A DNA stretch of 64,000 bases from Centroscyllium fabricii (lineage: Eukaryota): contig JBNRSN020000009.1 of NCBI GenBank assembly GCA_051313645.2, positions 149,916,001 to 149,980,000 on the forward strand. Reading direction: 5' to 3'. Positions 8,206-62,828 of this stretch are shown piece after piece. Position numbers and translations under genes: made by a program. The notes beneath the pieces were generated by a model. It was not told where the DNA came from. It made no database searches and saw nothing but the letters and a program-made list of their open reading frames with translations. The number at the start of each line of letters is the position of its first letter. The stretch's first letter is position 1.

Positions 8206-9145
8206 CTGTGAAACCTCAGCAAGAATTAGCACCGTCGGGAGAGAATGGGGAGAAAAACAGGCAAAGGACAAAGAAAAAAGAAACCAGATTTGGATGTATC
8301 GGAGCAACAAACAGTGAACCAAACAGAGTGCTGAAAGGATTCCAGTAAACGGATCCATTATTCCCGCGCAGGCACCCTCTCATTTTTCAAAGACTGTTTA
8401 TTGTTCGAAGCAGATTTTATTTTTTCTTTAAAAGATATCTTTATTTGGAGAATCCAGACTCTCCTTGTCTGCATTCGAAATCGGAATCGGGCAAAGATCT
8501 GATGTCGGAGATTGTTCTCACACGAGCTGTACAAGGTAACTGTAACTGGCTCTTTCAGAAGGACGCCTTTCACTGTGACTCATTGAAAGGTTTAAACGCA
8601 GGCTTCTAAAACCCTTGAGGTAGGATCCATCTGCTGGAAACCCAATCTGGTAATTATACTTCAGTAAACCATGTTTCATGATGTGATTTAAGTGGATTAG
8701 AATCTGGGAGAATTTAACGCTCAATGCAGTAGCACTCACCAAGCAATGGGGAAAAAATTGCTTCATTTATAGACTCACCGTGTAAAATTCCAGGGCCAGC
8801 CCATGATAATGCAGCTAGGACACTCAACCACAGTAAAAAAAATATTTGCATTTATATAGTACCTTTAATGTAGCAAAATATCCCAAAGCGCTTCACAGCT
8901 AATGAAGTACATTTTGAAATGCAGTCACTGTTGTAATGTAGGGAAGCGGTAGCCAATTTGCGCACAGCAAGATTCCACAAACAGCAATGAGATAATGACT
9001 AGATAATCTGTTTTAATGACGTCGGTTGAGGGATAAATACTGGACCAGGACACTGGGGAGAACTCCCCTGCTCTCCTTCAAAATAGTGTCATGGGATCTT
9101 TTATGTTCACTGAGGGGTTTAATGTCTCATCAGAAAAATGGCACG

Positions 9146-9930
9146 TCCGACAGTGCGGCGCTCCCTCAGTACTGCCCCTCCGACAGTGCGGCCGTCCCTC
9201 AGTACTGCCCCTCCGACAGTGCGGTGCTCCCTCAGTACTGCCCCTACGACAGTGCAGCGCTCCCTCAGTACCACCCCTCCGACAGTGCGGAGCTCCCTCA
9301 GTACTGCCCCTCCGACAGTGCGGCGCTCCCTCAGTACTGCTCCTCCGACAGTGCGGCACTCCCTCAGTACTGCCCCTTCGACAGTGCTGCGCTCCCTCAG
9401 CACTGCCCCTCTGTCAGTACAGCGCTCCCTCGGTACTGCCCCTCTGACAGTGCGGCGCACCCTCAGTACTGCCTCTCCGACAGTGCAGCGCTCCCTCAGT
9501 ACTGCCTCTCCGACAGTGCGGTGCTCCCACAGTACTGCCCCTCCGACAGTGCGGTGCTCCCTCAGTACTGCCCCTCCGACAGTGCGGCGCTCCCTCAGTA
9601 CTGCTCCTCCGACAGTGCAGTACTCCCTCAGTACTGCCCCCCCAACAGTGCGGCGCTCCCTCAGTACTGCTCCTCCGACAGTGCAGTACTCCCACAGTAC
9701 TGCCCCCCCAACAGTGCGGCGCTCCCTCAGTACTGCCCCTCCGACAGTGCGGCGCTCCCTCAGTACTGCTCCTCCAACAGTGCAGTACTCCCTCAGTACT
9801 GCCCCCCCAACAGTGTGGCACTCCCTCAGTACTGCCTCTCCGACAGTGTGGCACTCCCTCAGTACTGCCCCTCCGGCACTCCCTCAGTACTGCCCCTCCG
9901 ACAATATGGTGCTCCCTCAGTACTGCCCTG
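9146..9930. repeat. 33-bp minisatellite (CCCTCCGACAGTGCGGCGCTCCCTCAGTACTGC, ~24 copies) expanded inside a DeuSINE
   Basis: Tandem unit visible directly; it matches the single-copy segment in other DeuSINE copies. Confidence 0.95.
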
Positions 9931-10629
9931 GAGTGTCAGTCTTGATTTTTGTGCTCAAAATCTCTGGAGCGGGACCTGAACCCAGAACCTTCTGACTCAG
10001 AGTGGCATGTAAATGTTTAACATCGTGGGAGAATGCTGATGGTTTTTTTAAAATTGAGAAGCTTAAGTGGAGAGTCTAGGCAAATCACAAGGGACATCAG
10101 AATGGTTGAAAAGGAGAGAAGTTTGGATAAATCAAGAAATAATGCTTGGTCGACACCAAGATTTGGGTTTTTAGTTTGGAGAAGGGAGGGAACACTGAGG
10201 GAGGCAGGGAGTCCCATAGTTTTGTGATCATTGAAGGATTTGGAACAGGGAATGCTGGAATAAATCTGGTTTTCTGGACGTAGGGAGGAATAAGAACTTG
10301 TGGGCTCGGAACAGGAGGCCATTCAGCCCCTCAAACCATTCCGCCATTCAACGAGATCATGGTGGCTGATCTGTATCTCAACTCCAGCTATACGCCTTGG
10401 TTCTGTAGCCCTTATACAGTTGATGTATTGTAAAACGGAGGTGGATCAAGAGGAGGATATTCAGAGGAACACTGACCATCAACGCATCAATAATACAAAG
10501 ATGAGAAAGATTGTGATGAAGAGAGGGTGGTGATGGAGAGAGTGGAGGCTAGGCATAAGAGAACAATCGGTGACCAGAGAACAAGTTATTCCTTGCATCC
10601 TGTCCGGGAATGTACAAGAGGTGTTGCAG

Positions 10630-24864: not shown

Positions 24865-26404
24865 GTAAATATCTGTCCCCTCATTCACTGCAGGGTGTGA
24901 GGAAACACCCAGTCTGGTATGATCTATCACCGGGGAGAGTGTAGATATCCAAACATTGCTGTCAGGCACACATCGATCACCAGACCCACTTTAAAAATCT
25001 TTGAACATATGCAGGAAAATTTCAAGTTGTCTGTTTCCAGCATGATTGACACGGGATTAGGCACAGTGTGTATCACGGACGATACAACTGGGTGCTTATT
25101 CAGCAGGGTAAGGGTCACTCACTGTAACTGTACAGTCACTGTTTATTCAGGGTAAGGGTCACTCACTGTAACTGTACAGAGTCACTGTTTATTCAGGGTA
25201 AGGGTCACTCACTAACTGTACAGAGTCACTGTTTATTCAGAGTAAGGGTCACTCACTAACTGTACAGAGTCACTGTTTATTCAGGGTAAGGGTCACTCAC
25301 TAACTGTACAGAGTCACTGTTTATTCAGGGTAAGGGTCACTCACTGTGTAACTGTACAGAGTCACTGTTTATTCAGGGTAAGGGTCACTCACTGTAACTG
25401 TACAGAGTCACTGTTTATTCAGGGTAAGGGTCACTCACTGTAACTGTACAGAGTCACTGTTTATTCAGGGTAAGGGTCACTCACTGTAACTGTACAGATT
25501 CACTGTTTATTCAGGGTAGGGGTCACTCACTGTAACTATACAGAGTCACTGTTTATTCAGGGTAAGGGTCACTCACTAACTGTACAGAGTCACTGTTTAT
25601 TCAGGGTAGGGGTCACTCACTGTAACTATACAGAGTCACTTTATTCAGGGTAAGGGTCACTCACTGTAACTGTAGAGTCACTGTTTATTCAGGGTAAGGG
25701 TCACTCACTAACTGTACAGAGTCACTGTTTATTCAGGGTAAGGGTCACTCACTGTAACTGTACAGAGTCACTGTTTATTCAGGGTAAGGGTCACTCACTG
25801 TAACTGTACAGAGTCACTGTTTATTCAGGGTAAGGGTCACTCACTGTAACTGTACAGAGTCACTGTTTATTCAGGGTAAGGGTCACTCACTGTAACTGTA
25901 CAGAGTCACTGTTTATTCAGGGTAAGGGTCACTCACTGTAACTGTACAGAGTCACTGTTTATTCAGGGTAAGGGTCACTCACTGACTGTACAGATTCACT
26001 GTTTATTCAGGGTAAGGGTCACTCACTGTAACTGTACAGAGTCACTGTTTATTCAGGGTAGGGGTCACTCACTAACTATACAGAGTCACTTTATTCAGGG
26101 TAAGGGTCACTCACTGTAACTGTACAGAGTCACTGTTTATTCAGGGTAAGGGTCACTCACTGTAACTGTACAGAGTCACTGTTTATTCAGGGTAAGGGTC
26201 ACTCACTGTAACTGTACAGAGTCACTGTTTATTCAGGGTAAGGGTCACTCACTGTGTAACTGTACAGAGTCACTGTTTATTCAGGGTAAGGGTCACTCAC
26301 TGTAACTGTACAGTCACTGTTTATTCAGGGTAAGGGTCACTCACTGTAACTGTACAGTCACTGTTTATTCAGGGTAAGGGTCACTCACTGTGTAACTGTA
26401 CAGA

Positions 26405-27947
26405 TGCAAGAAGTCACACAACACCAGGTTATAGTCCAGCTGTGTATCTCCAACCAACACAGTACCTCCAGCCAACGCTGTACACCAGATACATCAACGA
26501 CATTTTCCTCCTGTGGACCCACGGCGAAGAATCACTGAAAAGACTACACGATAACATAAACAAGTTCCATCCCACCATCAAACTCACCATTGACTACTCC
26601 TCAGAATCGGTTTCATTCTTGGACACACGAATCTCCATCAAAGACGGACACCTCAGCACTTCCCTTGACCGCAAACCCACGGACAACCTCACGGTGCTCC
26701 ACTACTCCAGCTTCCACCCAAACCACGTTAAACAGCCATCCCCTATGGACAAGCCCTGCGAATACACAGGATCTGCTCAGACGAGGAGGAACGCGACGGA
26801 CACCTACAGACACTGAAAGGCGCCCTCGTAAGAACAGGATATGACACTCGACTCATCGATCGACAGTTCCGAAGGACCACAACGAAAAATCGCATAGACC
26901 TCCTCAGAAGACGACCACGGGACACAACCAACAGAGTACCCTTTGTCGTCCAGTACTTCCCCGGAGCGGAGAAACTACGCCATGTTCTTCGCAGCCTTCA
27001 ACATGTCATTGATGACGACGAACACCTCGCTAAGGCCATCCCCACGCCTCCACTACTCGCCTTCAAACAGCCACCTTAACCTCAAACAGACTATCGTTCG
27101 CAGCAAATTACACAGCCTTCAGGAGAACAGCAACCACGACACCACACAACCCTACCACAGGAACCTCTGCAAAACGTGCCAAATCATCAGCACAGATACC
27201 ATCATCACACGTGAGGACACCACACACCAGGTACATGGTACATACTCATGCAACTCGACCAATGTTGTCTACCTCATACGTTGCAGGAAAGGATGCCCCG
27301 GGGCATGGTACATCGGCGAGACCATGCAGACACTTCGACAACGGATGAATGGACACCGCACACCAATTGCCAGGCAGGAGTGTTCCCTCCCAGTCGGGGA
27401 ACATTTCAGCAGTGAAGGACATTCAGCCTCCGATCTTCGGGTAAGCATTCTCCAAAGCGGCCTTCGAGACACACGACAACGCAAAATCGTTGAGCAGAGG
27501 CTGATAGCCAAATTCCGCACCCATGAGGACGGTCTCAACCGTGATATCAGCTTCATGTCACACTACATGTGACCCTGCCTGACGTAGAGTCATCCAGACC
27601 AGAGACATCTTTGTCTTGTAAGGAAATTCCTTTGTTAAAAATCATTCTGTGTGTTTTGCAGCATTTGACCCCTTGTGACTGTGCCTCATTGATCTCAGAC
27701 TGATATGTTAAAATATGTTAATACGCCTTTGTGTGCTCTGTCTATCTCTGCTAAGGTGAGATGTGGGAGATCAGATTTCTCTCTCCCTTCCATATGTGCG
27801 TTCTTTAAGTCAGCTTCTCTTTCGCCTGATGAAGGGGCAGACGCTCCGAAAGCTTGTGATTTAAAATAAAACTGTTGGACTATAACCTGGTGTTGTGTGA
27901 CTTCTTGCATTTGTCCACCCCAGTCCAACACCGGCATCTCCACATCA
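26405..27947 (+). mobile_element. 5'-truncated Penelope-like element (RT C-terminus + GIY-YIG endonuclease) inserted in the 46-bp satellite
   Basis: RYIND..FLD..KPT RT motifs and NVVYLIRC..YIGET..RMNGH..GLN GIY-YIG motifs. Short inverted copy of the 3' end at the 5' end. TSD TAACTGTACAGA. Confidence 0.92.
27822..27859 (+). ncRNA. Minimal type I hammerhead ribozyme in a Penelope terminal repeat
   Basis: TCGC-CTGATGA-A-GGGGC(AGAC)GCTCC-GAAA-GCTT-GTGA: catalytic core, stem II, palindromic AAGCTT stem III and stem I TCGC/GTGA. Confidence 0.75.
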
Positions 27948-29920
27948 TAACTGTACAGAGTCACTGTTTATTCAGGGTAAGGGTCACTCACTGTAACTGT
28001 ACAGAGTCACTGTTTATTCAGGGTAAGGGTCACTCACTGTAACTGTACAGAGTCACTGTTTATTCAGGGTAAGGGTCACTCACTGTAACTGTACAGAGTC
28101 ACTGTTTATTCAGGGTAAAGGTCACTCACTAACTGTACAGAGTCACTGTTTATTCAGGGTAGGGGTCACTCACTGTAACTATACAGAGTCACTGTTTATT
28201 CAGGGTAAGGGTCACTCACTGTAACTGTACAGAGCCAATGTTTATTCAGGGTAAGGGCCACTCACTGTGTAACTGTACAGAGTCACTGTTTATTCAGGGT
28301 AAGGGTCACTCACTGTAACTGTACAGAGTTACTGTTTATTCAGGTTAAGGGTCACTCACTGTACCTGTACAGAGTCACTGTTTATTCAGGGTAAGGGTCA
28401 CTCACTAACTGTACAGAGTCACTGTTTATTCAGGGTAAGGGTCACTCACTGTAACTGTACAGAGTCACTTTATTCAGGGTAAGGGTCACTCACTGTAATT
28501 GTACAGAGTCACTGTTTATTCAGGGTACGGGTCACTCACTAACTGTACAGAGTCACTGTTTATTCAGGGTAAGGGTCACTCACTGTGTAACTGTACAGAG
28601 TCACTGTTTATTCAGGGTAAGGGTCACTCACTGTAATTGTACAGAGTCACTGTTTATTCAGGGTAAGGGTCACTCACTGTAACTGATAAGAGTCACTGTT
28701 TATTCAGGGTAAGGGTCACTCACTAACTGTACAGAGTCACTGTTTATTCAGGGTAGGGGTCACTCACTGTAACTATACAGAGTCACTGTTTATTCAGGGT
28801 AAGGGTCACTCACTGTAACTGTACAGAGTCACTGTTTATTCAGGGTAGGGGTCACTCACTGTAACTATACAGAGTCACTTTATTCAGGGTAAGGGTCACT
28901 CACTGTAACTGTACAGAGTTACTGTTTATTCAGGTTAAGGGTCACTCACTGTACCTGTACAGAGTCACTGTTTATTCAGGGTAAGGGTCACTCACTAACT
29001 GTACAGAATCACTGTTTATTCAGGGTAAGGGTCACTCACTGTAACTGTACCGAGTCACTGTTTATTCAGGGTAAGGGTCACTCACTAACTGTACAGAGTC
29101 ACTGTTTATTCAGGGTAAGGGTCACTCACTGTAACTGTACAGGGTCACTGTTTATTCAGGTTAAGGGTCACTCACTGTAACTGTACAGAGTCACTGTTTA
29201 TTCAGGGTAAGGGTCACTCACTGTGTAACTGTACAGAGTCACTGTCTATTCAGGGTAAGGGTCACTCACTAACTGTACAGAGTCACTGTTTATTCAGGGT
29301 AAGGGTCACTCACTAACTGTACAGAGTCACTGTTTATTCAGGGTAAGGGTCACTCACTGTAACTATACAGAGTCACTGTTTATTCCGGGTAAGGGTCACT
29401 CACTAGCTGTACAGAGTCACTGTTTATTCAGGGTAAGGGTCACTCACTGTGTAACTACAGAATCCATGGTTTTCCATCCAGAATGGATCCTCAATCCCAG
29501 CGGAAGGCTCCATTTCAGGAGCGCCATCACATACCAGCTCTTCCTGACGGACTGGCACAAAAAGAGACCTTTGCCACTTTGGTGCACCCGGTGCTGAGCT
29601 GCACCCACTGGTAAACCTCCCCCCCACCAGCCATCTGCTGTTATTTTTGGGTGGACAATCATGGGCTGGTGATGCGCGACCTCCCGATATGTGCTCACGG
29701 TGGGTACAGCTCCACACTGGGAGTGCTGCAATGGAACGTTTCCACTTGAAATTGTCAGTCTCATTCACAGACCACAAGGACATCTTGTGTGGGAAATGGG
29801 AATGTCAGACTGGGCCAGAAGGGGATACTCCTGATCCTAAGGCTGAAGGTTAGTGCAGAGTAGGTGAAAAATCAACTACCTGTTCAAAATAGAACAAAGA
29901 TTGAAGGACTGTGATGGACT

Positions 29921-50700: not shown

Positions 50701-53700
50701 TCGATGACCTTTCATCAGAACTGGAAAGAAGCCGGAAATGGAGCAGATTTAAAAGCATGTTTCGGGGCTGGGAAATGGGGGAGGGGTTAAAGAACAAAAG
50801 GGAAGGTCTGTGATAGGATAGAAAGCGGGAGAAGTAAAGAGGCTTTAAGAGATATTCACAGCGAGAGGAGATGGTGATGGGACAGGTTAAGGAACAAAGG
50901 ATGGCTCTGGATGGGGTGTGAATTGCACTGGCAGAATGAAGGACAGCTGCCATGTGGGAGACAAGAACAGAAGACTAAAAAACAGTGTGGGTAAAAAATA
51001 TATCAATATAATCGGGGCCGAGGTTATGATCTGAGATTGTTGAACTCGATATTGAGTCCAGAGGCCTGTAGAGTGCCTAATGGGAAGATGAGGTGCTGTT
51101 CCTCGAGCTTACCCTGAGCTTCCGTGGAACGATGCAAGAGGCTGAGGACGGTGAGGTCTGAGTGGGAATGGAGCGGTGAATTAAAGTGACAGGCCACCGG
51201 GAGCTCGGGGTCCCCCTTGTGGTAAACCACTGTTTCCATTGTATATACTCACCCTATGATGTATCTCTGTAATCGTGCTTATATCTATGTTTGTATATAA
51301 CCTGTTTAACCTGTTGTACGATTACCTGGACATGCCCAGGCTGTCTCCACCCGCGACTCCTCCCTCCCAGGAGGAGGTATAGAAGTGGCCGTCTCCCATC
51401 CCTCAGCCATTCCTGGGGACGGTCGACTACCTGGTGCATGTGCACCATTTAGTGAATAAAAGCCGTATTGTTTCACCCTTATAACTACTCGTCCACGAGG
51501 TCGTTATTTCGGTCACAATTTTATTCACTAAATTTTGAAGATGGAAGCGATGCTCAAGCCAGCAACGTTTGAACTGGATCCCCGGACACCAGGCGCATCA
51601 AACACATTCTCGCACTGGTATGATGTTTTCGATGCGTACCTGAGAGCGAACGCAGCGGTCGTCAGGACCGAAGAGGACAAACGGCGGCTCCTCAACGCCC
51701 GGGTGGGCCCTCAGGTGTACTCTATGATCGTGGACGCTTCATCCTTTTTGGATGCTATCAGGATCCTCAAGGCAGAGTACAATCGGGCCCCCAATATCGT
51801 CCACGCCAGACACCTCCTAGCCACCAGGAAGCAGCAACCCGGTGAGTCCAGTGTGGAATTTTTAAGAGCGCTGAGAGTGCTCTCACGGGCCTGCGAATGC
51901 AGAGCGTTATCGGCCCAGCTCCATGTGGACAGTCTCATTAGAAATGCATACGTTACAGGCCTCAGGTCGGACTATATCAGACAGAGGCTGTTAGAGCAGA
52001 ACGGCCTTGACCTGCAGGCAACAACGGATCTGGGACACGCGCTGGACGTGGCCTCACTAAATCTTTCATCGTATTCCGGCAATTATACAGGCCCAGCCCC
52101 GCCATCTTGGACAGTGCCGGTGCAACGGCCGGTGGAAGAAATGATCGCAGCCGCTCACGCGAAGACGGCAAAATGTTACTTCTGCGGGCAGTCTCAGCAT
52201 CCGAGACGTAGCTGCCCGGCAAGAGAAGCGGCCTGCTCAAAATGTGGAAAAAAGGGACATTACGCCAAAGTCTGTAAGGCGACCACATCAGCCCCTAAAC
52301 CGAAACCGGGCAGTGCCGCGTGTGGAACATGGGAGCAGCCATATTGGACTCAACCATCCCCCACTCAGCACCCCGCATGGCAGCAGTCGCCATATTGGAC
52401 CCAGCCACCCCCTCCGCAGTACACCGCATGGCGGCAGCCATCTTGGGGACCGGCCCCGGAGGACTACTCTTCGGATCAAGAGGAATCGGCTGACCCAATA
52501 TTGGCATTGGTGACTCTCGACCAGAACAAGGCCCAATCGCTCGGGAAATCGATGATGCCGGTGGGAGTAAACGGACAGGACGTGGTGTGCCTTTTCGACA
52601 GTGGGAGCACGATGAGTTTTGTTCATCCTGAGACAGTAAAGCGCCTCTCCCTTAAGGTTATGCCAGCGAGTCAAAGAATTTCAATGGCTTCTAAATCTGA
52701 ATCTGCGGACGTCTCTGGGCGTTGCGCAGTGGCCCTAACGGTGCAGGGCGTGCATTTTAATAATTTTAGCTTTTTCGTGCTGCCGCAGCTCTGCGCTCCA
52801 TTACTATTGGGACTGGACTTCCAGTGCCATCTCCAAAGCGTTACCATGGCGTACGGTGGGCCCCTTCCCTCGCTCACGGTCAGCAACCGGCGCTCAGCGC
52901 CGCACCCCCGGCGTGCTACCTGTGGCCTCTCGACCCTTAAGGTCGCCCCTCCCTCGCTCTTTACCAACCTCACCCCAGACTGCAAGCCCATCTCCAAAGC
53001 GTTACCATGGCGTACGGTGGGCCCCTTCCCTCGCTCACGGTCAGCAACCGGCGCTCAGCGCCGCACCCCCGGCGTGCTACCTGTGGCCTCTCGACACTTA
53101 AGGTCGCCCCTCCCTCGCTCTTTACCAACCTCACCCCGGACTGCAAGCCCGTCGCCACCAAGAGTAGGCGCTACAGTGCTGGGGACATGGACTTTATCAA
53201 GTCCGAGGTGCAGCGCCTCCTGAAGGAGGGGGTTATCGAGGCCAGTAATAGCCCCTGGAGGGCGCAGGTAGTGGTGGTGAAAACCGGAGCGAAGAACCAG
53301 ATGGTGGTAGACTACAGTCAGACCATCAATCGGTTCACCCAGCTAGACGCATACCCCCCTCCCCCGGATAGCGGACATGGTGAATCAGATCGCGCAGTTC
53401 CGGGTGTTCTCCACCTTAGATCTGAAGTCCGCATACCACCAGTTTCCCATTCGCCCAGAGGACCGTCTCTATACTGCCTTCGAGGCTGACGGTCGCCTCT
53501 ACCACTTCCTCAGGGTCCCGTTTGGCGTCACGAATGGGGTCTCGGTCTTCCAAAGGGAGATGGACCGAATGGTCGATCAGTATGGGCTGCGAGCCACTTT
53601 CCCGTACCTCGATAACGTGACCATCTGCGGCCACGATCAGCAGGACCATGACGCCAACCTCCAGAAATTTCTCCACACCGCCAAAACACTCAATCTGACG

Positions 53701-54338
53701 TACAACACCGAAAAATGTGTGTTCAGTACCACTCGCCTTGCCATCCTCGGCAGTGTTGTGGAGAATGGGGTCATCGGTCCCGACCCGGACCGCATGCGCC
53801 CCCTCATGGAGCTCCCCCTCCCCCACTCCCCCAAGGCCCTTAAACGGTGCTTGGGGTTCTTTGCCTATTATGCCCAGTGGGTCCCCAATTACGCGGACAA
53901 AGCTCGCCCACTGCTTAAATCCACCTCATTCCCCCTGTCAGCAGATGACCGCGTGGCGTTCTGCGGCATTAAAGACGACATCGCGAAGGCTACGATGCAC
54001 GCTGTGGACGAATCTGTCCCATTCCAAGTAGAGAGCGATGCATCGGATTTTGCCTTGGCCGCCACGCTTAACCAGGCGGGCAGACCCATGGCCGCCTTCT
54101 CGCGTACCCTCCAGGGCCCCGAGACCCGTCACTCCTCAGTCGAAAAGGAGGCCCAGGCCATCGTTGAAGCAGTGCGTCACTGGAAGCACTACCTGGCCGG
54201 CAAGCGTTTTACCCTGCTGACTGACCAACGATCAGTCGCTTTTATGTTCATAATGCGGAGGTGCCGGTGTTGGACTGGGGTGGACAAATGCAAAAAGCCA
54301 CACAACACCAGGTTTAAAGTCCAACGTTTTATTTTAAA

Positions 54339-54376
54339 TCACAAGCTTTCGGAGCTTTTGCCCCTTCGTCAGGCAA
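54339..54376 (-). ncRNA. Minimal hammerhead ribozyme, inverted partner of 54981-55018
   Basis: Reverse complement of the 54981-55018 motif. Confidence 0.7.
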
Positions 54377-54980
54377 AGAGAAACTGAACTCAAAGATCAC
54401 ACATGGGGGAGGGGAGAAATCTGATCCAACCCTAGAGCACACAAGCATATCAGCATACCGTAACACCTCAGTCTGCGAACAATGGGGCACAATTGCAGGG
54501 GGGTCACATGCTGCAAAACACAGAGTGATTTTTTTTCCTTTTTTAAAAGCAAAAAAAAAGACACATCAAAGGGGTGCAGTCACAGGGCCTAACGCTAGTC
54601 TGCTGTAAATCCCACAGAATTACTTTTTTTATAAAAAAGCCGAAGATGGTTCGGGTCTGGACGACTCCACGCCAGGCGGGGTCACATGTAGCGTGACATA
54701 AACCCAATATCACGGTTGAGGCCGTGCTCATGGGTGCGGAACTTGGCAATCAGCCTCTGCTCGACGATTTTGCGTTGTCGTGTATCTTGAAGGCCACCCT
54801 GGAGAATGCTCACCCGAAGATCGGAAGCTGAATGTCCTTGACCGCTGAAATGTTCCCCCTGCAATTGTGCCCCATTGTTCGCAGACTGAGGTGTTAAGGT
54901 ATGCTAATATGCTTGTGTGCTCTAGGGTTGGATCAGATTTCTCCCCTCCCCCATGTGTGATCTTTTAGTTCAGTTTCTCT

Positions 54981-55018
54981 TTGCCTGACGAAGGGGCAAA
55001 AGCTCCGAAAGCTTGTGA
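54981..55018 (+). ncRNA. Minimal hammerhead ribozyme in a Penelope repeat
   Basis: TTGC-CTGACGA-A-GGGGC(AAAA)GCTCC-GAAA-GCTT-GTGA. Confidence 0.7.
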
Positions 55019-58000
55019 TTTAAAATAAAACGTTGGACTTTAAACCTGGTGTTGTGTGACTTTTTGCTTTTATGTTCAACAACAAAGAGCGGGGTAAAAT
55101 AAAGAACGACAAGATATTAAGGTGGAGAATTGAACTCTCCGCGTTCAACTATGATATCTTGTACCGGCCCGGGAAATTTAACGAACCCCCAGATGCCCTA
55201 TCTCGCGGTACCTGTGCCAGCGCACAGACAGACCGCCTCCAAACCTTACACAATGACCTCTGCCACCCGGGGGTCACCAGGTTGGTTCACTTTGTGAAGT
55301 CCCGCAACCTCCACTACTCCATCGAAGAGGTCAAGACCCTGACCAGCAATTGCCAGGTCTGCGCGGAGTGCAAGCCGCACTTCTATCGGCCAGATCGGGC
55401 GCATTTGATTAAGGCCACTCGCCCCTTTGAACGACTCAGCGTCGATTTCAAAGGACCCCTTCCCTCCTCCAACAGGAATGTGTACTTCCTCAACGCAATT
55501 GACGAGTACTCCCGCTTCCCCTTTGCCATCCCCTGCCCGGACATGACCTCCGCCACGGTCATCAAAGCCCTCCACAGCATCTTCTCCCTGTTCGGCTATC
55601 CCAGCTATATCCATAGCGACCGGGGGGCGTCCTTTATGAGTGACGAACTGCGTCAGTTTCTGCTAGCCAAAGGCATCGCGACTAGCAGGACTACCAGCTA
55701 CAACCCCCGGGGGAACGGACAGGTAGAGAGGGAGAACGCCACTGTCTGGAAGGCCATCCTGTTAGCCCTACGGTCTAAAGGTCTCCCAGTCACCCGCTGG
55801 CAGGACGTCCTCCCTGAAGCGCTCCACTCCACCCCTCACGAACGACTTTTTGCCTTCCCCAGGAAGTCGGCTTCCGGGACCTCGCTACCATCATGGCTGC
55901 TATCCCCGGGACCAGTCCTACTCAGGAAGCACGTGAGGGGCCACAAGGCAGATCCCCTGGTCAAACGGGTCCACCTCCTGCACGCCAATCCCCAGTACGC
56001 CTACGTGGCGTACCCCGACGGGAGGGAGGACACCGTGTCAATCAAGGACCTGGCGCCAGCGGGAGTCCCCAAACCCAGCCCTGCCCAGCAGCCCGCGCAC
56101 CCAAGACGCCCCGCCCAGCAGCCCGCGCACCCAAGACGGCCAGCCACTCCGCCCGGGCCACCGCGGCCAGCCACGCCACCCCAGCCACCGGCGCCAAGGT
56201 ACGCTCCCCGGCACGAGGACCCGGCACCTGCGAGCAGCACGGCATGGCCTCCAGCATGGCTCCACAGTGCACGCCCCCTAGAGTCCGACGACGAGGGAGA
56301 GAGTGTGCCTCCTACTGTCACTACAAGGGCACCACCACCCAGAAACCAATCGACGCTGTCAATCACCGCTCGCCAACCAGCATCAGCACCATCGACACAA
56401 CCAACTCGGCCGGCCACTCCACGACCGCGGACACCACCAGCGGCGCGACGCTCAACCAGGATCACCAGGCCGCCGGAGCGCCTTAATTTGTAAATTTAAA
56501 AGAACTGTCGCGTTCACCCCGCCGGACTTTTGTTTTAAAGAAGGGGTGAATGTGGTAAACCACTGTTTCCATTGTATATACTCACCCTATGATGTATCTC
56601 TGTAATCGTGCTTATATCTATGTTTGTATATAACCTGTTTAACCTGTTGTACGATTACCTGGACATGCCCAGGCTGTCTCCGCCCGCGACGACTCCCTCC
56701 CAGGAGGAGGTATATAAGTGGCCGTCTCCCATCCCCCAGCCATTCCTGGGGACGGTCGACTACCTGGTGCATGTCCACCATTTAGTGAATAAAAGCCGTA
56801 TTGTTTCACCCTTATAACTACTCGTCCATGAGGTCGTTATTTCGGTCACACCCCTTATGGACTGAACGGAGGTGTTCCACAAAGCGGTCGCCCAATCTGC
56901 ATTTGGTCTCCCCGATGTAGAGGAGACCACATCGTGAGCAGCAAATACAGTATACTAAATTGCAAGAAGTACAAGTAAATCGCTGCTTCACCTGGAAGGG
57001 GTGTTTGGGGCCCTGGAGAATGGGAAGGGGGGAGGTATAATGGCATATGCTGCATCTCCTGCACTTGCACAGGAAGGTGCCGGGCGAGGGGTGAGGGGTG
57101 CTGGGGGTGATAGAGGAGTGGACTAGGATGTCGCAGAGAGAGCGACCCTAACGGAATACTGAAAGGGGAGGTGAGGGGAACATGCGTTTGGTGGTGAGAT
57201 CGCGCCGGAAATGGCGGAAGATGATCTGTTGAATGTGCAGGCTGGTGGGGTGAAAGGTGAGGACAAGAGGAACTCTATCGTGGTTTCGGGGGGGAGGGGC
57301 AGGGGTGAGGGCAGAAGTGCGGGAGATAGAACAGACACGGTCGAGGGCCGTGTCAACCACAGTAGAGGGGAATCCTCAGTTGAGGAAAAAGGAAGACATG
57401 TCGGAAGCACTAGTGTGGAAGGTGACATCATCAGAGCAGATGCGGCGGAGACAGAGAAACTGGGAGAATGGAATAGAGTCCTTACAGGAGGTGGGGTGGG
57501 AGGAAGTGTAGTCCAGGTAGCTGTGGGAGTCAGTGGGCTTGTAGTGAATGTTGGTCAATAACCTGTCCCCAGAGATGGAGACGGAGAAGTCGAGGAATGG
57601 AAGGGAAGAGTCGGAGATGGACCATGTGAAGGTGAGGGAAGGGTGGAAATTGGAAGCAAAGTGAATAAAATTGTCTAGTACAGGGCGAGAGCAGGAAACG
57701 CCACCGATACAGTCATCAATACTGGAGCATCTCGCCCCTTGAGGAACACAGGATAAGACCCACAAGTCAGGATTAAAGCAAGGTTTAAAAGAGTAGATGA
57801 GATGAACCAAGTATTAGTTAGGTTACACCAAGCTTGGGTTGTAGATTGCAGGGGGAAGGGGAGACTGAGGGACCTGTGGAGTTCCACAGTTTTGCGGTGT
57901 TTGTAAAGAAAGACGTGCATTTATATCGTGCTTTTCATGACCACTGGACATCCCAAAGCGCTTTACAGCCAATGACGTGTTGTCACGGTTGTAATGTGGG

Positions 58001-58515: not shown

Positions 58516-58751
58516 ATAGTGCCTTGGAATCTTTTATGTCCACCTGAGGGGGGCAGACGGGGCCTCGGTTTAACGTCTCATCCGAAAGACGGCACCTCCA
58601 ACAGTGCAGCACTCCCTCAGTACTGCCGAGTGTCAGCCTAGATTTTTTGTGCTCGAGCCTCTGGAGTGGGGCTTGAACCCTCAACCTTCTGCCTCAGAAG
58701 CAAGTGTGCTACCCACTGAGCCACAGCTGACACTGAGTTGAGTAGAAAAGT

Positions 58752-61700
58752 TGACGTATCGTCAATACCTTAGATTAAAAGAGTCGACGAGTAGTTACCG
58801 AAACTAAAGGCTTTTAATCGCTAAAGAACGGAGCTACCCTCCGGAACGAACTTCTGTACAGGAATGAGGAGCCTCGGTCAGTTTCCACCTATAAAGGGGC
58901 CTCACCTGGGGGAGGAGTTAGAGGTGTGGCTGACCTGGCTCCCAACAGTATTATACAGTATACAGGGCTGTGCCTTACATCCGCACAGCTCATTATTGTT
59001 ACAATAATAACAGTGGTAAACAACGATACAAGGGTTACCACATTCACCCCTTCTTGAAAATTTTAAGTCGGGTGGGGAGGGGGGTGAATGGGCCGAACAG
59101 TTCATGATCAGTCTGTCCGGCGGTCGTGTCTGCCTGGAGGACCGCCGGCGTTCCGGTGTTGGTGGTGGTGCCTCCTGGTTCGTACCACTTGCATCTGCCA
59201 GTGGTGACCGCTGATCGGGTGCCGTGGATTCTGGTGGCGATGGATCCGGCTGGTCCCCGCCGTCCGGGTCGTAGTTCAGTACTGGCCGGTGCTCGGGGAA
59301 ACTCGGGGGCCATCGTGTGTCTGGTGGGTTTTCTGGATACCGCGGCTGAGCGGCCTGCTGGCCGGCCAGGGGCTCTGCGGTGGTGCTTCCTGCGGGAGCC
59401 AGGTCCCTGATAGACACGGTGTCCTCACGCCCGTCCGGGAACTGCATGAATGCATAGTGGGGGTTCGCGTGTAGGAGCTGTACCTTGTCCACCAGGGGGT
59501 CTGTCTTGTGGCTCCGGACATGCCTTCTAAGCCAAACCGGCCCCGGAGTCGTCAGCCATGGAGGAAGAGCTGTCCCCAAAGTCGATTTCCTAGGGAAGGA
59601 GAAAATCAGATCGTGCGGGGTGGCGTTACTAGCAGTACATAATAGAGAGCGTATAGAGTGCAGCGCGTCTGGGAGGACTGCCTGCCAATGGGACACTGGA
59701 AGGCCTCTGGACTTGAGAGCCAGGGTGACCGCCTTCCAAATAATCCCATTCTCCCTTTCTACCTGGCCGTTCCCCCGGGGGTTATAACTGGTCGTTCTGC
59801 TTGTGGCAACCCCTTTCTGGAGCAGAACCTGGCGCAGTTCATCGCTCATGAACGATGACCCCCGGTCGCTATGGATGTAGCCTTTAGTTTCAGTAACTAC
59901 TCGTCGACTCTTTTAATCTAAGGTATTAACGATACGTCAATTTTAATCACTAAAGAACGGAGCTACCCTCCGGAACGAACTTCTGTACAGGAATTTGGCC
60001 AGATTGGCATCGTGGTCCTGCTGGTCGTGGCCGCAGATGGTCACGTTGTCCAGGTAAGGGAAAGTGGCCTGCAAGTCATTTTGGTCAACCATACGGTCCA
60101 TCTCCCGTTGGAACACTGACACTCCGTTGGTCACGCCAAAGGGGACCCGGAGGAAGTGGTAGAGCCGACCGTTCGCCTCGAAGGCAGTGTAGGGGCGGTC
60201 GGCTTTCTGGATCGGGAGCTGGTGATATGCCGATTTAAGGTCGATCGTAGAGAACACCTTGTACTGGGCGATCTGATTGACCATTTCCGAGATGCGGGGA
60301 AGGGGGTAGGCGTCGAGCCCGGTGTAGCGGTTGATAGTCTGGCTGTAATCGATAACCAGCCGCTGTTTTTCGCCAGACTTCACCACTACAACTTGGGCGC
60401 ACCAGGGGCTGGTGCTGGCTTCAATTATCCCCTCCTTCAGCATCCGCCCGACCTCCGACCTGATAAACGTGCGATCCCCCTCACTGTACCGCCGACTCTT
60501 AGTAGCAATCGGTTTGCACTTCGGATTGAGGTTGGCGAACAGCGAGGGGGGGTCGATTTTCAGGGTAGAGAGGCTGCAGGCCGGGCTACGCTTTGGGAAG
60601 GGATTGTCCCGGCTACTGACGGTGAGGGGGGGCAAGGTCCCGCAGAACTCCAATGTCACGCTCTTGAGGTGGCACTGGAAATCCAAACCTAGTAAGGCTG
60701 GGGCACACAACTGCTGGAGGGTATACAATTTAAAATTACGGTACACGCGCCCCTTGACGGTGAGCGTGACGGAGCAGTAGCCGGTGACGTCCGCGGTGTG
60801 GGACTGTGAAGCTAGGGAGACTTGGTAGTTAGTGGGCAGGACCTGCAGTCCGCAGCGCTGCACTGTATCGGGGTGTACAAAACTCTGTGCTTCCTGTGTC
60901 AAAAAGGCAGTTAACAGTGTAGTCATTAATCAAAATTGGCATTATAGAATTAGACAGGGTATGTGGCCTGTCCTGGTTCACTCTGATTCTGGCTGCCGCA
61001 GCCGTGCGTTTCTGTGTGCGTGGGGCCCTTGCTGGTCGGGGCTGTACACAAGATGGCGGCGCCCCTGGCCCGCACATGGTGGGGCCCTGCTTAAAAAATG
61101 GCGGCGCCCCTGGCTCGCACATGGAGGGCCGCTGTGAGCGCGCTGGCGGCGCCCGTGATTCGCACGCAGCGGACCGCGGTGATCGGGTTGGCGGTGCCCG
61201 TGATTCGCACGCAGCGGGCCGCGGTGGTCGGGTTGGCGGTGCCCGTGATTCGCACGCAGCCGGCCGCGTTGGGGGGTCGCGCTTGGCCGGCCTTTGCCGC
61301 ATCGGGGTGGGAGATGGGGGTGCTTGTTGTCTACCCCCGGACCGTCGCTGGATCGCGCTGCTATTGCAGCTTACCTGGTGTCTGTCGGTGCTCTCACAGG
61401 CTGCACTGTTGTACCTTTGGTTAGACGCTGCTGGAGCTGATCTGCAGGCTTTAGCGTAATGACCTTTCTTAGCGCATCTCTCACAAGTCGCTGTCCTGGC
61501 TGGGCATTTCGCTCGTGGGTGCAGTCCCTGGTTGCAGAAGTAGCAGCGCTTATCTTTTGTGGCTGTCGCAGCCATCGTGGGGGTCTCGGCCCGTTGTGGT
61601 GCTGCCCAGGCCTGGGCCTGTTGTGGCGCGGCCCATATGTTGTAGGCTTGCGGGTTAGTGCCGCTGTACGCCTGTAACTTGTTTCGGGCCCCCTCTACTG

Positions 61701-62511
61701 ATTTGGCTATCTTAGTCGCCTCCTCGAGGGATAGATTGTCTTTCTCAAGTAGCCGCTGGCGGGCTTCCACACACCTTAGTCCCGTAATGTAAGCGTCCCG
61801 AACGAGGAGTTCTGCCTCCTCTTCAGCTGTTCTGGCTTGGCAGCCACAGACCCGTACCAGGGCCAGGAGCGCTTGCTCGAACTGCTCATTGGACTCACCC
61901 GGTAGCTGAGATCTGGTCGCAAGCACATGCCGGGCGTAGACCGAATGGACCGGGCACTCGTAGCATTTTCGTAGTTGTCGTACGGCCGCTATGTAGGTTG
62001 AGGCGTTCCTGATGAGGGAGAATACCCTGCTGGAGATCCTCGACCGGAGGACCTGCAGTTTGTTCCTGTCCGATGTAGCCTTAGCGGCGTCCATGTAGGC
62101 CTCCAGGAGGCCGAACCAGTGTTCGAACGTGGTAGCAGCGGCAGGGTCCTGGGGACTGATGTCCAGCTTCTCAGGTTTAACTGCGCTGCTCTCCATTTAA
62201 AAATATTTAGCGATTAAAATTGACGTATCGTCAATACCTTAGATTAAAAGAGTCGACGAGTAGTTACCGAAACTAAAGGCTTTTAATCGCTAAAGAATGG
62301 AGCTACCCTCCGGAACGAACTTCTGTACAGGAATGAGGAGCCTCGGTCAGTTTCCACCTATAAAGGGGCCTCACCTGGGGGAGGAGTTAGAGGTGTGGCT
62401 GACCTGGCTCCCAACAGTATTACACAGTATACAGGGCTGTGCTTTACATCCGCACAGCCCATTATTGGTACAATAATAACAGTGGTAAACAACGATACAA
62501 GGGTTACCACA
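58752..62511 (-). mobile_element. Internally deleted Gypsy (Mag-like) element D with 291-bp LTRs (58752-59042, 62221-62511), 5-bp TSD AAAGT
   Basis: gag 60829-62196, pro-RT ~59995-60926, integrase C-half ~59050-59880. About 1.1 kb of RT-RNaseH-IN (by comparison with element B) is replaced by an LTR-derived insert. Confidence 0.95.
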
Positions 62512-62828
62512 AAAGTGGGATTATTTTAGGGGGCACAGACCAAATAACCTGTTTCTGTGCTGACGATTTGAGAGATGGTGAGATCCTGCTCCCAATCACA
62601 TATTTATCCAAATCCTTTCTGAGGATGGGAAATGACATAGCCCCAGAAACACTTTCATGGAGTCTGTTACCGTTACCAGGAATCGTTTCCACTCTTGTCA
62701 ACTTTCTGCTGGATGGTTGGGTGTTTGATCCAGTCTAACAAGGTCCCAGTGCGAATGATTCTGACCAGTTCTAACACTTTGATACCTGGATGTCCCGGAA
62801 CTAACAGTGTATACTTTCATTCCGACAG

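Follow-up and report, generated by a model that had tools for sequence, protein, structure and literature searches.

Self-priming of reverse transcription has been demonstrated experimentally for the fission-yeast retrotransposon Tf1, and elsewhere it has been predicted from base-pairing, as far as the accessible portions of the papers cited here and below go. The initial 11 bases of Tf1's RNA act as the primer, and RNase H cuts between bases 11 and 12 (PMC7175516). Tf1, a member of the chromoviruses, needs a structure of three duplexes, known as the pretzel (PMC10085805), and about 50% of its cDNA retains a copy of the primer-binding site, or PBS (PMC11042837). Self-priming has also been predicted for Tj1 (PMC4600332). 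The TAR/Houba/Osr-1 Copia elements and Tcn1 are likewise predicted self-primers; these belong to other lineages, and in the available part of that account the prediction is made from LTR-PBS complementarity alone, with the primer ends unmapped (PMC6317226).

The element described here lies on the minus strand (62511-58752) of the window, by which we mean the whole stretch of 64,000 nucleotides of Centroscyllium fabricii DNA that was analysed. Like Tf1 and Tf2 of Schizosaccharomyces pombe, Tj1 and the Tf1/sushi group, it has no tRNA site, and its PBS is complementary to the RNA of its own 5' LTR. The PR-RT-RH-IN order, the TG...CA LTRs, the polypurine tract and the target-site duplication identify it as a Ty3/Gypsy LTR retrotransposon. 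Its two LTRs (5' LTR, 62221-62511; 3' LTR, 58752-59042) measure 291 nt each, differ from one another at 5 positions and are flanked by the 5-bp duplication ACTTT (58747-58751 and 62512-62516). Between them, on the same strand, lie a gag with two Cys-His boxes (60829-62196), whose frame in this copy stops within the protease region, a protease remnant with RT (59995-60929) that is broken off at the insert described below, the 3' part of the integrase core with the C-terminal region (59056-59881), downstream of that insert, and a polypurine tract (59043-59055) ending in AA before the TG of the 3' LTR. The C-terminus of gag carries 45-nt repeats (61054-61271), the copy number of which differs among family members. 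The RT catalytic motif (at about 60050 in the window) reads YLDN, and not YXDD, in both Gypsy families considered here; a literature search on the YLDN RT motif gave no relevant match.

The family to which this element belongs (family 1) is very large. Its normal U5-PBS boundary has 35,249 matches in the 7.2 Gb genome, a count that indicates family size only and not chimeras, because the pattern fits every such boundary. The copies are ~4.8 kb long, with a single gag-pol frame, two Cys-His boxes (which we take to be a Mag-like feature), the YLDN motif and 5-bp duplications. Their best PDB match is the Ty3 RT (E 7e-49). Pfam finds PR, RT, RH and IN in two single-frame copies, the RNase H domain thus being present in family members other than the window copy. 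A chromodomain was found neither by Pfam in these two copies (E up to 0.05) nor in the precomputed domains of the best 120 of 1,134 protein homologues (E up to 1e-40). Sharks, rays, a sea anemone, a damselfly and a whipworm are among the matches listed, again the best 120 of 1,134, with 56-83% RT-RH identity. A metagenome search gave three related loci, and the leader is readable in one of them (L190, 47% RT identity), where it has the same layout; no relatives were found in viral contigs. Judged by the lack of a chromodomain and by a duplex that is not 5'-terminal, the element is not assigned to Tf1/sushi. It resembles Mag-lineage Ty3/Gypsy elements in its ~4.8 kb, short LTRs and mostly 5-bp duplications (PMC3286476), and an affinity to the Mag lineage is a lead drawn from such general features in the accessible portions of three papers (PMC3286476, PMC8220671, PMC3601003). 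In the same comparison of general features, the family-1 lineage is unlike mosquito Mag elements, which have tRNA-Leu/Ser/Arg primer sites (PMC3286476), in that it has no tRNA site.

The leader of the window element consists of a 1-nt spacer (62220) and a PBS (62219-62206; 62206-62220 together, on the minus strand), recognised by complementarity to the LTR and judged to be a non-tRNA site because it does not start with TGG. This PBS is complementary over 14 nt to 62294-62281 of the element's own LTR, a stretch that includes a poly(A)-type hexamer, ATTAAA. This primer-PBS duplex is part of the predicted leader fold (z -2.41) and, in the predicted folds, encloses U5 hairpins. U5 also contains, at 62243-62251 of the minus strand, CTTTTAATC, which is likewise complementary, over 9 nt, to the hexamer region and could form an alternative hairpin. 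A second Gypsy family is found in the window as a plus-strand element at 51218-56850, whose leader (51409-51533) follows the same plan, with ATTCC, a 15-bp duplex ending AATAAAA|GCC, CA, a 1-nt spacer and the PBS. The comparison of leaders indicates that the duplex is kept by two-sided changes across families and in L190, its two sides changing together across subfamilies and families (CG/CG, TA/TA, CA/TG, TG/CA, and ATTAAA versus AATAAA). The families also have in common GCC after the duplex and CA followed by a 1-nt spacer. Measured from the end of the duplex, ATTC usually lies 52-54 nt upstream and TATA usually 80-85 nt upstream. The leader scan admitted only sequences with GCC, the spacer and no fewer than 9 pairs, and this pairing threshold inflates the apparent pairing.

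This layout departs from that of Tf1 in several respects. In Tf1 the primer comprises the RNA's first 11 nt, all of them paired, whereas the putative primer described here would measure 53-54 nt, with ~40 nt unpaired with the PBS and a poly(A)-type hexamer as its 3' end. Its paired segment would thus not be the extreme 5' end of the RNA, as it is in Tf1, the likely end being placed ~40 nt upstream. Unlike Tf1/sushi elements, the family shows no chromodomain and has a 1-nt spacer after CA, and a three-duplex pretzel is not evident in the predicted folds.

Our attention was drawn to this element by a 115-nt insert in pol, which the sequence-only reading had described as 54 nt of sense LTR joined to antisense spacer and U5. 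This description is confirmed by comparison with the LTR. The first block (59994-59941, minus strand) equals LTR 62334-62281 in sense orientation, starting with ATTCC and extending over 54 nt through the last base of the ATTAAAA run, and is likely a copy of self-primer RNA. The second (59940-59880, or to 59879 with the T of its GGC(T) end) is the 61-nt reverse complement of the spacer A at 62220 and of U5 62221-62280, and is likely minus strong-stop DNA; bases 59879-59881 at its edge are common to insert and pol. Against the 5' LTR, the insert shows 4 differences, and its first block shows 1 against the 3' LTR. Three changes occur in the insert alone, two of them being CpG transitions. As judged against other copies, it stands in place of ~1.1 kb of RT-RH-IN, and the proposed loss of pol is borne out: most of the 20 other fetched copies continue for ~1.1 kb at this position, as does L074, whose aligned flanks are 1,103 nt apart. 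Microhomology with pol is present at both junctions, as had been claimed, and on the left it has the expected 6 nt (ATTCCT); on the right it is G-C-T, within the pol sequence CCCAGC|TACATCC, and not GCC. The blur had been described for the 5' boundary, by up to 6 nt, but the right-hand microhomology means that the 3' boundary is likewise blurred, by 3 nt. Meanwhile, the inner junction sits inside the 14-nt inverted repeat (LTR 62294-62281 against PBS 62219-62206) and hence cannot alone fix the 3' end of the primer. We consider it likely that the insert is a copy, made by reverse transcriptase, of a whole priming intermediate, in which a primer from the element's own 5' RNA was joined to minus strong-stop DNA.

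The insert had been treated as a lone fossil. A search of the genome for further copies with its chimeric junction shows instead that it is one member of a large class, with 62 loci in family 1, all of which were fetched, and 145 in the second Gypsy family, 70 of which were examined. The common order along the element strand is 5' LTR, PBS, antisense leader back to ATTCC, and then a jump into internal sequence; on genomic evidence, the combination of LTR, PBS and antisense leader ending at ATTCC occurs at many loci of the two families. Such an ending is as expected if the plus strand copies an unremoved primer to its end, and most of the ~200 junctions probably represent plus-strand read-through of this kind. 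The window insert and L123 are the only two of the 62 family-1 loci bounded by both of the proposed ends. They have the left junction in common and their right partners are different; the AU test does not reject their common origin (p 0.35). At L188 and L189 (G000 C335 139983550-139984705), the family-2 primer junction is found in four tandem copies, 378 nt apart.

The ends of the sense blocks point to the 5' end of the RNA. All 62 family-1 loci, including L126, L127 and L140, were curated by eye, and in 33 of them the sense block stops short of U3. Among these 33 informative blocks, 22 start between -3 and +2 of the A of ATTCC, at 12 distinct partner sites, and 11 start between +5 and +29, at 10 sites, while none starts upstream of ATTCC within U3. 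The probability of this pile-up is 4e-12 against a uniform distribution over 210 nt, and 3.5e-4 over the nearest 40 nt. Ten loci jump to one site in gag. In nine of these ten, the A of the LTR is kept against a G of the partner and the preceding T comes from the partner, which means that the copied strand ended exactly at +1. The gag-hotspot loci do not form one clade and have at least three origins (AU p 5.7e-5; tree of nine, L081 being too short and omitted). Among the 70 family-2 loci, 31 sense blocks start between -5 and +2 of ATTCC, with 27 different flanks, 23 start between +3 and +36, and 16 start further upstream. Thirteen of the latter reach the LTR start and three appear to be broken in U3 (L179, L214 and L220), so the wall at ATTCC is not absolute. 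At two family-2 loci (L176 and L216) the join is blunt at +1, and the preceding C is included in a few blocks of this family. An extra G before the start, a candidate for copying of the cap, is present in L134; no pattern is shown, and partners often supply that base.

Rather than being scattered in the other copies, as the sequence-only reading had expected of ordinary hairpin inversion, the 5'-side ends concentrate at ATTCC in two LTR families that are unrelated to each other. Since an RNA that starts ~30 nt past TATA ends at ATTCC and a DNA template does not, we infer an RNA 5' end at this point, which corresponds to 62334 in the window; the TATA-position motif lies at 62359-62364, ~30 nt before it, with a spacing that is kept across families. 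ATTCC thus likely marks both the RNA 5' end and the end of an unremoved primer of 53-54 nt (62281-62334, minus strand). A self-derived primer of about the ~54 nt originally claimed is strongly supported by the sense-block ends of both families, as is its apparent retention on the cDNA.

The opposite end of the intermediate was sought among the antisense blocks. Eighteen of these stop short of the LTR start in family 1, with L137 omitted on account of a 17-nt slip between repeats. Seven of the 18 end within -6 to +3 of GCC, each with a partner of its own (L096, L097, L108, L123, L125, L132 and the window); the probability of this cluster is 1.5e-6 over 285 nt and 2.7e-5 over 110 nt. The T after GGC is kept in five of the seven junctions at the duplex edge, L244, a new chimera, ends in GGC without T, and an A precedes GCC in 16 of the 17 matches of a genome scan at the cut site. 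The cut had been placed at AUUAAAA|GCC, which these ends support to within a few nt. Its exact register does not hold up as well: the cut may fall 1 nt to the left, at AUUAAA|AGCC, which seems to fit the T-keeping junctions at least as well (62281/62282 or 62280/62281 in the window). With the cut at AUUAAA|AGCC, two additional bases would remain past CA, the counterpart of the AA that precedes TG at the opposite end. The poly(A) machinery normally cleaves 10-30 nt after the hexamer, and a cut by this machinery was set aside, as the distance does not fit.

The genome scans show no peak at the cut site, with 17 matches there against 11 at 6 nt and 16 at 19 nt inside U5. Of the 17, nine represent deletions within the LTR and one a point variant, and joins to element-internal sequence make up 7 of 17 at the cut, 3 of 11 at 6 nt and 6 of 16 at 19 nt inside U5. 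At 24 nt upstream of the cut, 33 matches were found, 24 of them from another related family, and none of the 30 examined is a join to internal sequence (Poisson 0.005). A further scan, placed within the duplex as a control, was confounded by indels in the T run (317 matches) and excluded. In family 2, three of about 10 informative antisense ends fall within +6 of the cut (L199, L209 and L214), and four antisense blocks end or skip inside U5, three just past the duplex. The signal at the cut site thus appears to be a step and not a peak, with a template that seemingly ends at the duplex edge, and the exact position of the cut is moderately supported. Early transfer from within U5 is common.

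The same data bear on the possibility that the primer is a separate capped transcript of ~54 nt, paused or prematurely ended, which anneals in trans to uncut genomic RNA without self-cleavage. Such a primer would account for the ATTCC wall equally well, its 3' end could not be fixed from the inner junction either, and the step-like signal, weak in family 2, would suit it. On an uncut template, however, strong-stop synthesis could reach the cap, yet none of the 18 truncated family-1 antisense blocks ends at the likely RNA start and seven end at the duplex edge, and the lack of internal partners 24 nt upstream of that edge also counts against it. We therefore regard a primer acting in trans as improbable.

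A further alternative is ordinary template switching at the DNA level, in which the 14-nt inverted repeat gives rise to hairpin inversion or plus-strand fold-back and the ends are set by chance microhomology. DNA fold-back does occur, since the 29 of 62 family-1 loci whose sense blocks reach the LTR start, with the whole U3, need pairing of DNA. Six loci (L082, L083, L104, L114, L118 and L135) are palindromic insertions of 523-525 bp that begin and end with U3 and are flanked by a 5-bp duplication, exact in five and with a mismatch in one. They are likely fold-back products that became integrated, of a kind peculiar to self-priming elements, and pairing of the plus-strand copy of the primer with LTR sequence likely gave rise to them. 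One clean inversion (L122) and the microhomology at both window junctions, which blurs most single junctions elsewhere too, are likewise compatible with DNA switching. A DNA template, however, has no end at ATTCC, where the 12 of 22 distinct family-1 partner sites and the 27 family-2 flanks stop, in some cases blunt or with a terminal mismatch, and the reciprocal junction that plain hairpin inversion requires is found at one locus (L122) against 62. The distribution of endpoints largely refutes this explanation, which we hold to be quite unlikely for the window insert. An assembly artefact joining LTR pieces into pol is hardly credible. The family does have a very high copy number, but the insert carries private, CpG-type changes, and the 62 loci of one family and 145 of the other show the same type of junction with consistent ends. 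To our knowledge, collapse errors of assembly do not usually take the form of antisense-sense joints of 54 and 61 nt. Among the pieces listed from contigs of four runs (at most 2 samples, 1 study), none crosses the junctions of the insert.

For the self-primed intermediate, we propose the following series of events. The RNA would start at the A of ATTCC or 1 nt before it, and its nucleotides 41-54, which are complementary to the PBS, are predicted to pair with it. It would then be cut at the 3' edge of the duplex, at AUUAAA|AGCC or AUUAAAA|GCC, possibly by RNase H, a role suggested by analogy with Tf1 alone, and reverse transcriptase would extend the primer by ~61 nt to the cut, giving strong-stop DNA. 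The primer would often be left on, so that the plus strand reads through to the 5' end of the RNA and sometimes lands wrongly. In the window copy, reverse transcriptase likely jumped onto the intermediate at the 3-nt match and off it at the 6-nt match, with loss of the ~1.1 kb of pol; a double jump of the minus strand, or a strong-stop end priming on minus DNA, would be equally compatible with this. The presence of both LTRs and of the 5-bp duplication shows that the damaged cDNA was integrated normally.

The proposed cut at the 3' edge of the duplex and the copying of the primer into the plus strand are both reminiscent of Tf1, where they come from biochemistry and not, as here, from genomic junctions. 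Judging by the title of a 2006 study by Atwood-Moore, the primer is reportedly copied into the Tf1 plus strand. The element thus likely works like Tf1 without being Tf1/sushi. The errors themselves are comparable to the aberrant strand transfers of retroviruses, in which template switches of reverse transcriptase yield deletions with insertions (PMC3187697), and reverse transcriptases are able to restart on terminal matches of 2 nt (PMC3035444). Unlike in the retroviral cases, the piece inserted here corresponds over its whole length to one predicted intermediate, and what appears to have been copied as primer is self RNA and not a tRNA.

Taken across both families, it seems probable that a widespread, non-chromoviral lineage of animal Gypsy elements primes with a capped, 53-54-nt piece of its own 5' RNA, which is cleaved immediately behind the poly(A) hexamer and stays on the cDNA. 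The start and the cut would be recorded at near-nucleotide resolution by hundreds of integrated errors of reverse transcription, so that the mode of priming could be read from assemblies alone. The junctions would be in vivo records of self-priming in such a lineage, with a self-derived primer five times the length of that of Tf1. If so, a single stretch of 14 nt would be both the end of the primer and the poly(A) signal, and its pairing would hide the 5' hexamer. R would extend only from GCC as far as the poly(A) site and thus be very short for the first strand transfer, and the first 54 nt of both daughter LTRs would be copied from the 3' end of the RNA. In the literature within our coverage, which left out subscription journals and Repbase notes, we found no report of genomic self-primer fossils or of such junctions, nor, within the same coverage, of self-priming by a poly(A) signal in animal Gypsy elements. 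Counting of junctions is applicable to any LTR family of high copy number, other predicted self-primers included.

Several further rearrangements were observed around U5. Nine loci (L233-L235, L237-L239 and L241-L243) have LTR deletions of 10-21 nt in which the hexamer is lost and which end at AGCC, several of them at AGC microhomologies; these may be strong-stop ends that mis-annealed in the 3' LTR. At another nine (L251, L253, L255, L292, L295, L299, L300, L302 and L306), internal sequence is joined directly to the last 41-54 nt of U5, in most cases at the right end of the element, and these joins are likely early, misplaced first-strand transfers that still integrated. In L094, antisense U5, ending 7-9 nt early, is fused to an antisense polypurine tract.

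The second Gypsy element of the window has also been rearranged. Its pol is interrupted by a 786-bp, MITE-like insert (54286-55071) with inverted arms of 217 nt (98%), and a tandem duplication of 161 nt is located in the protease-RT linker (52827-53148). Elsewhere in the window, minisatellite arrays occupy 9014-10006, 15333-16300, 23523-24400 and 25060-29600, with units of 33, about 12, 19 and 46 nt, respectively.
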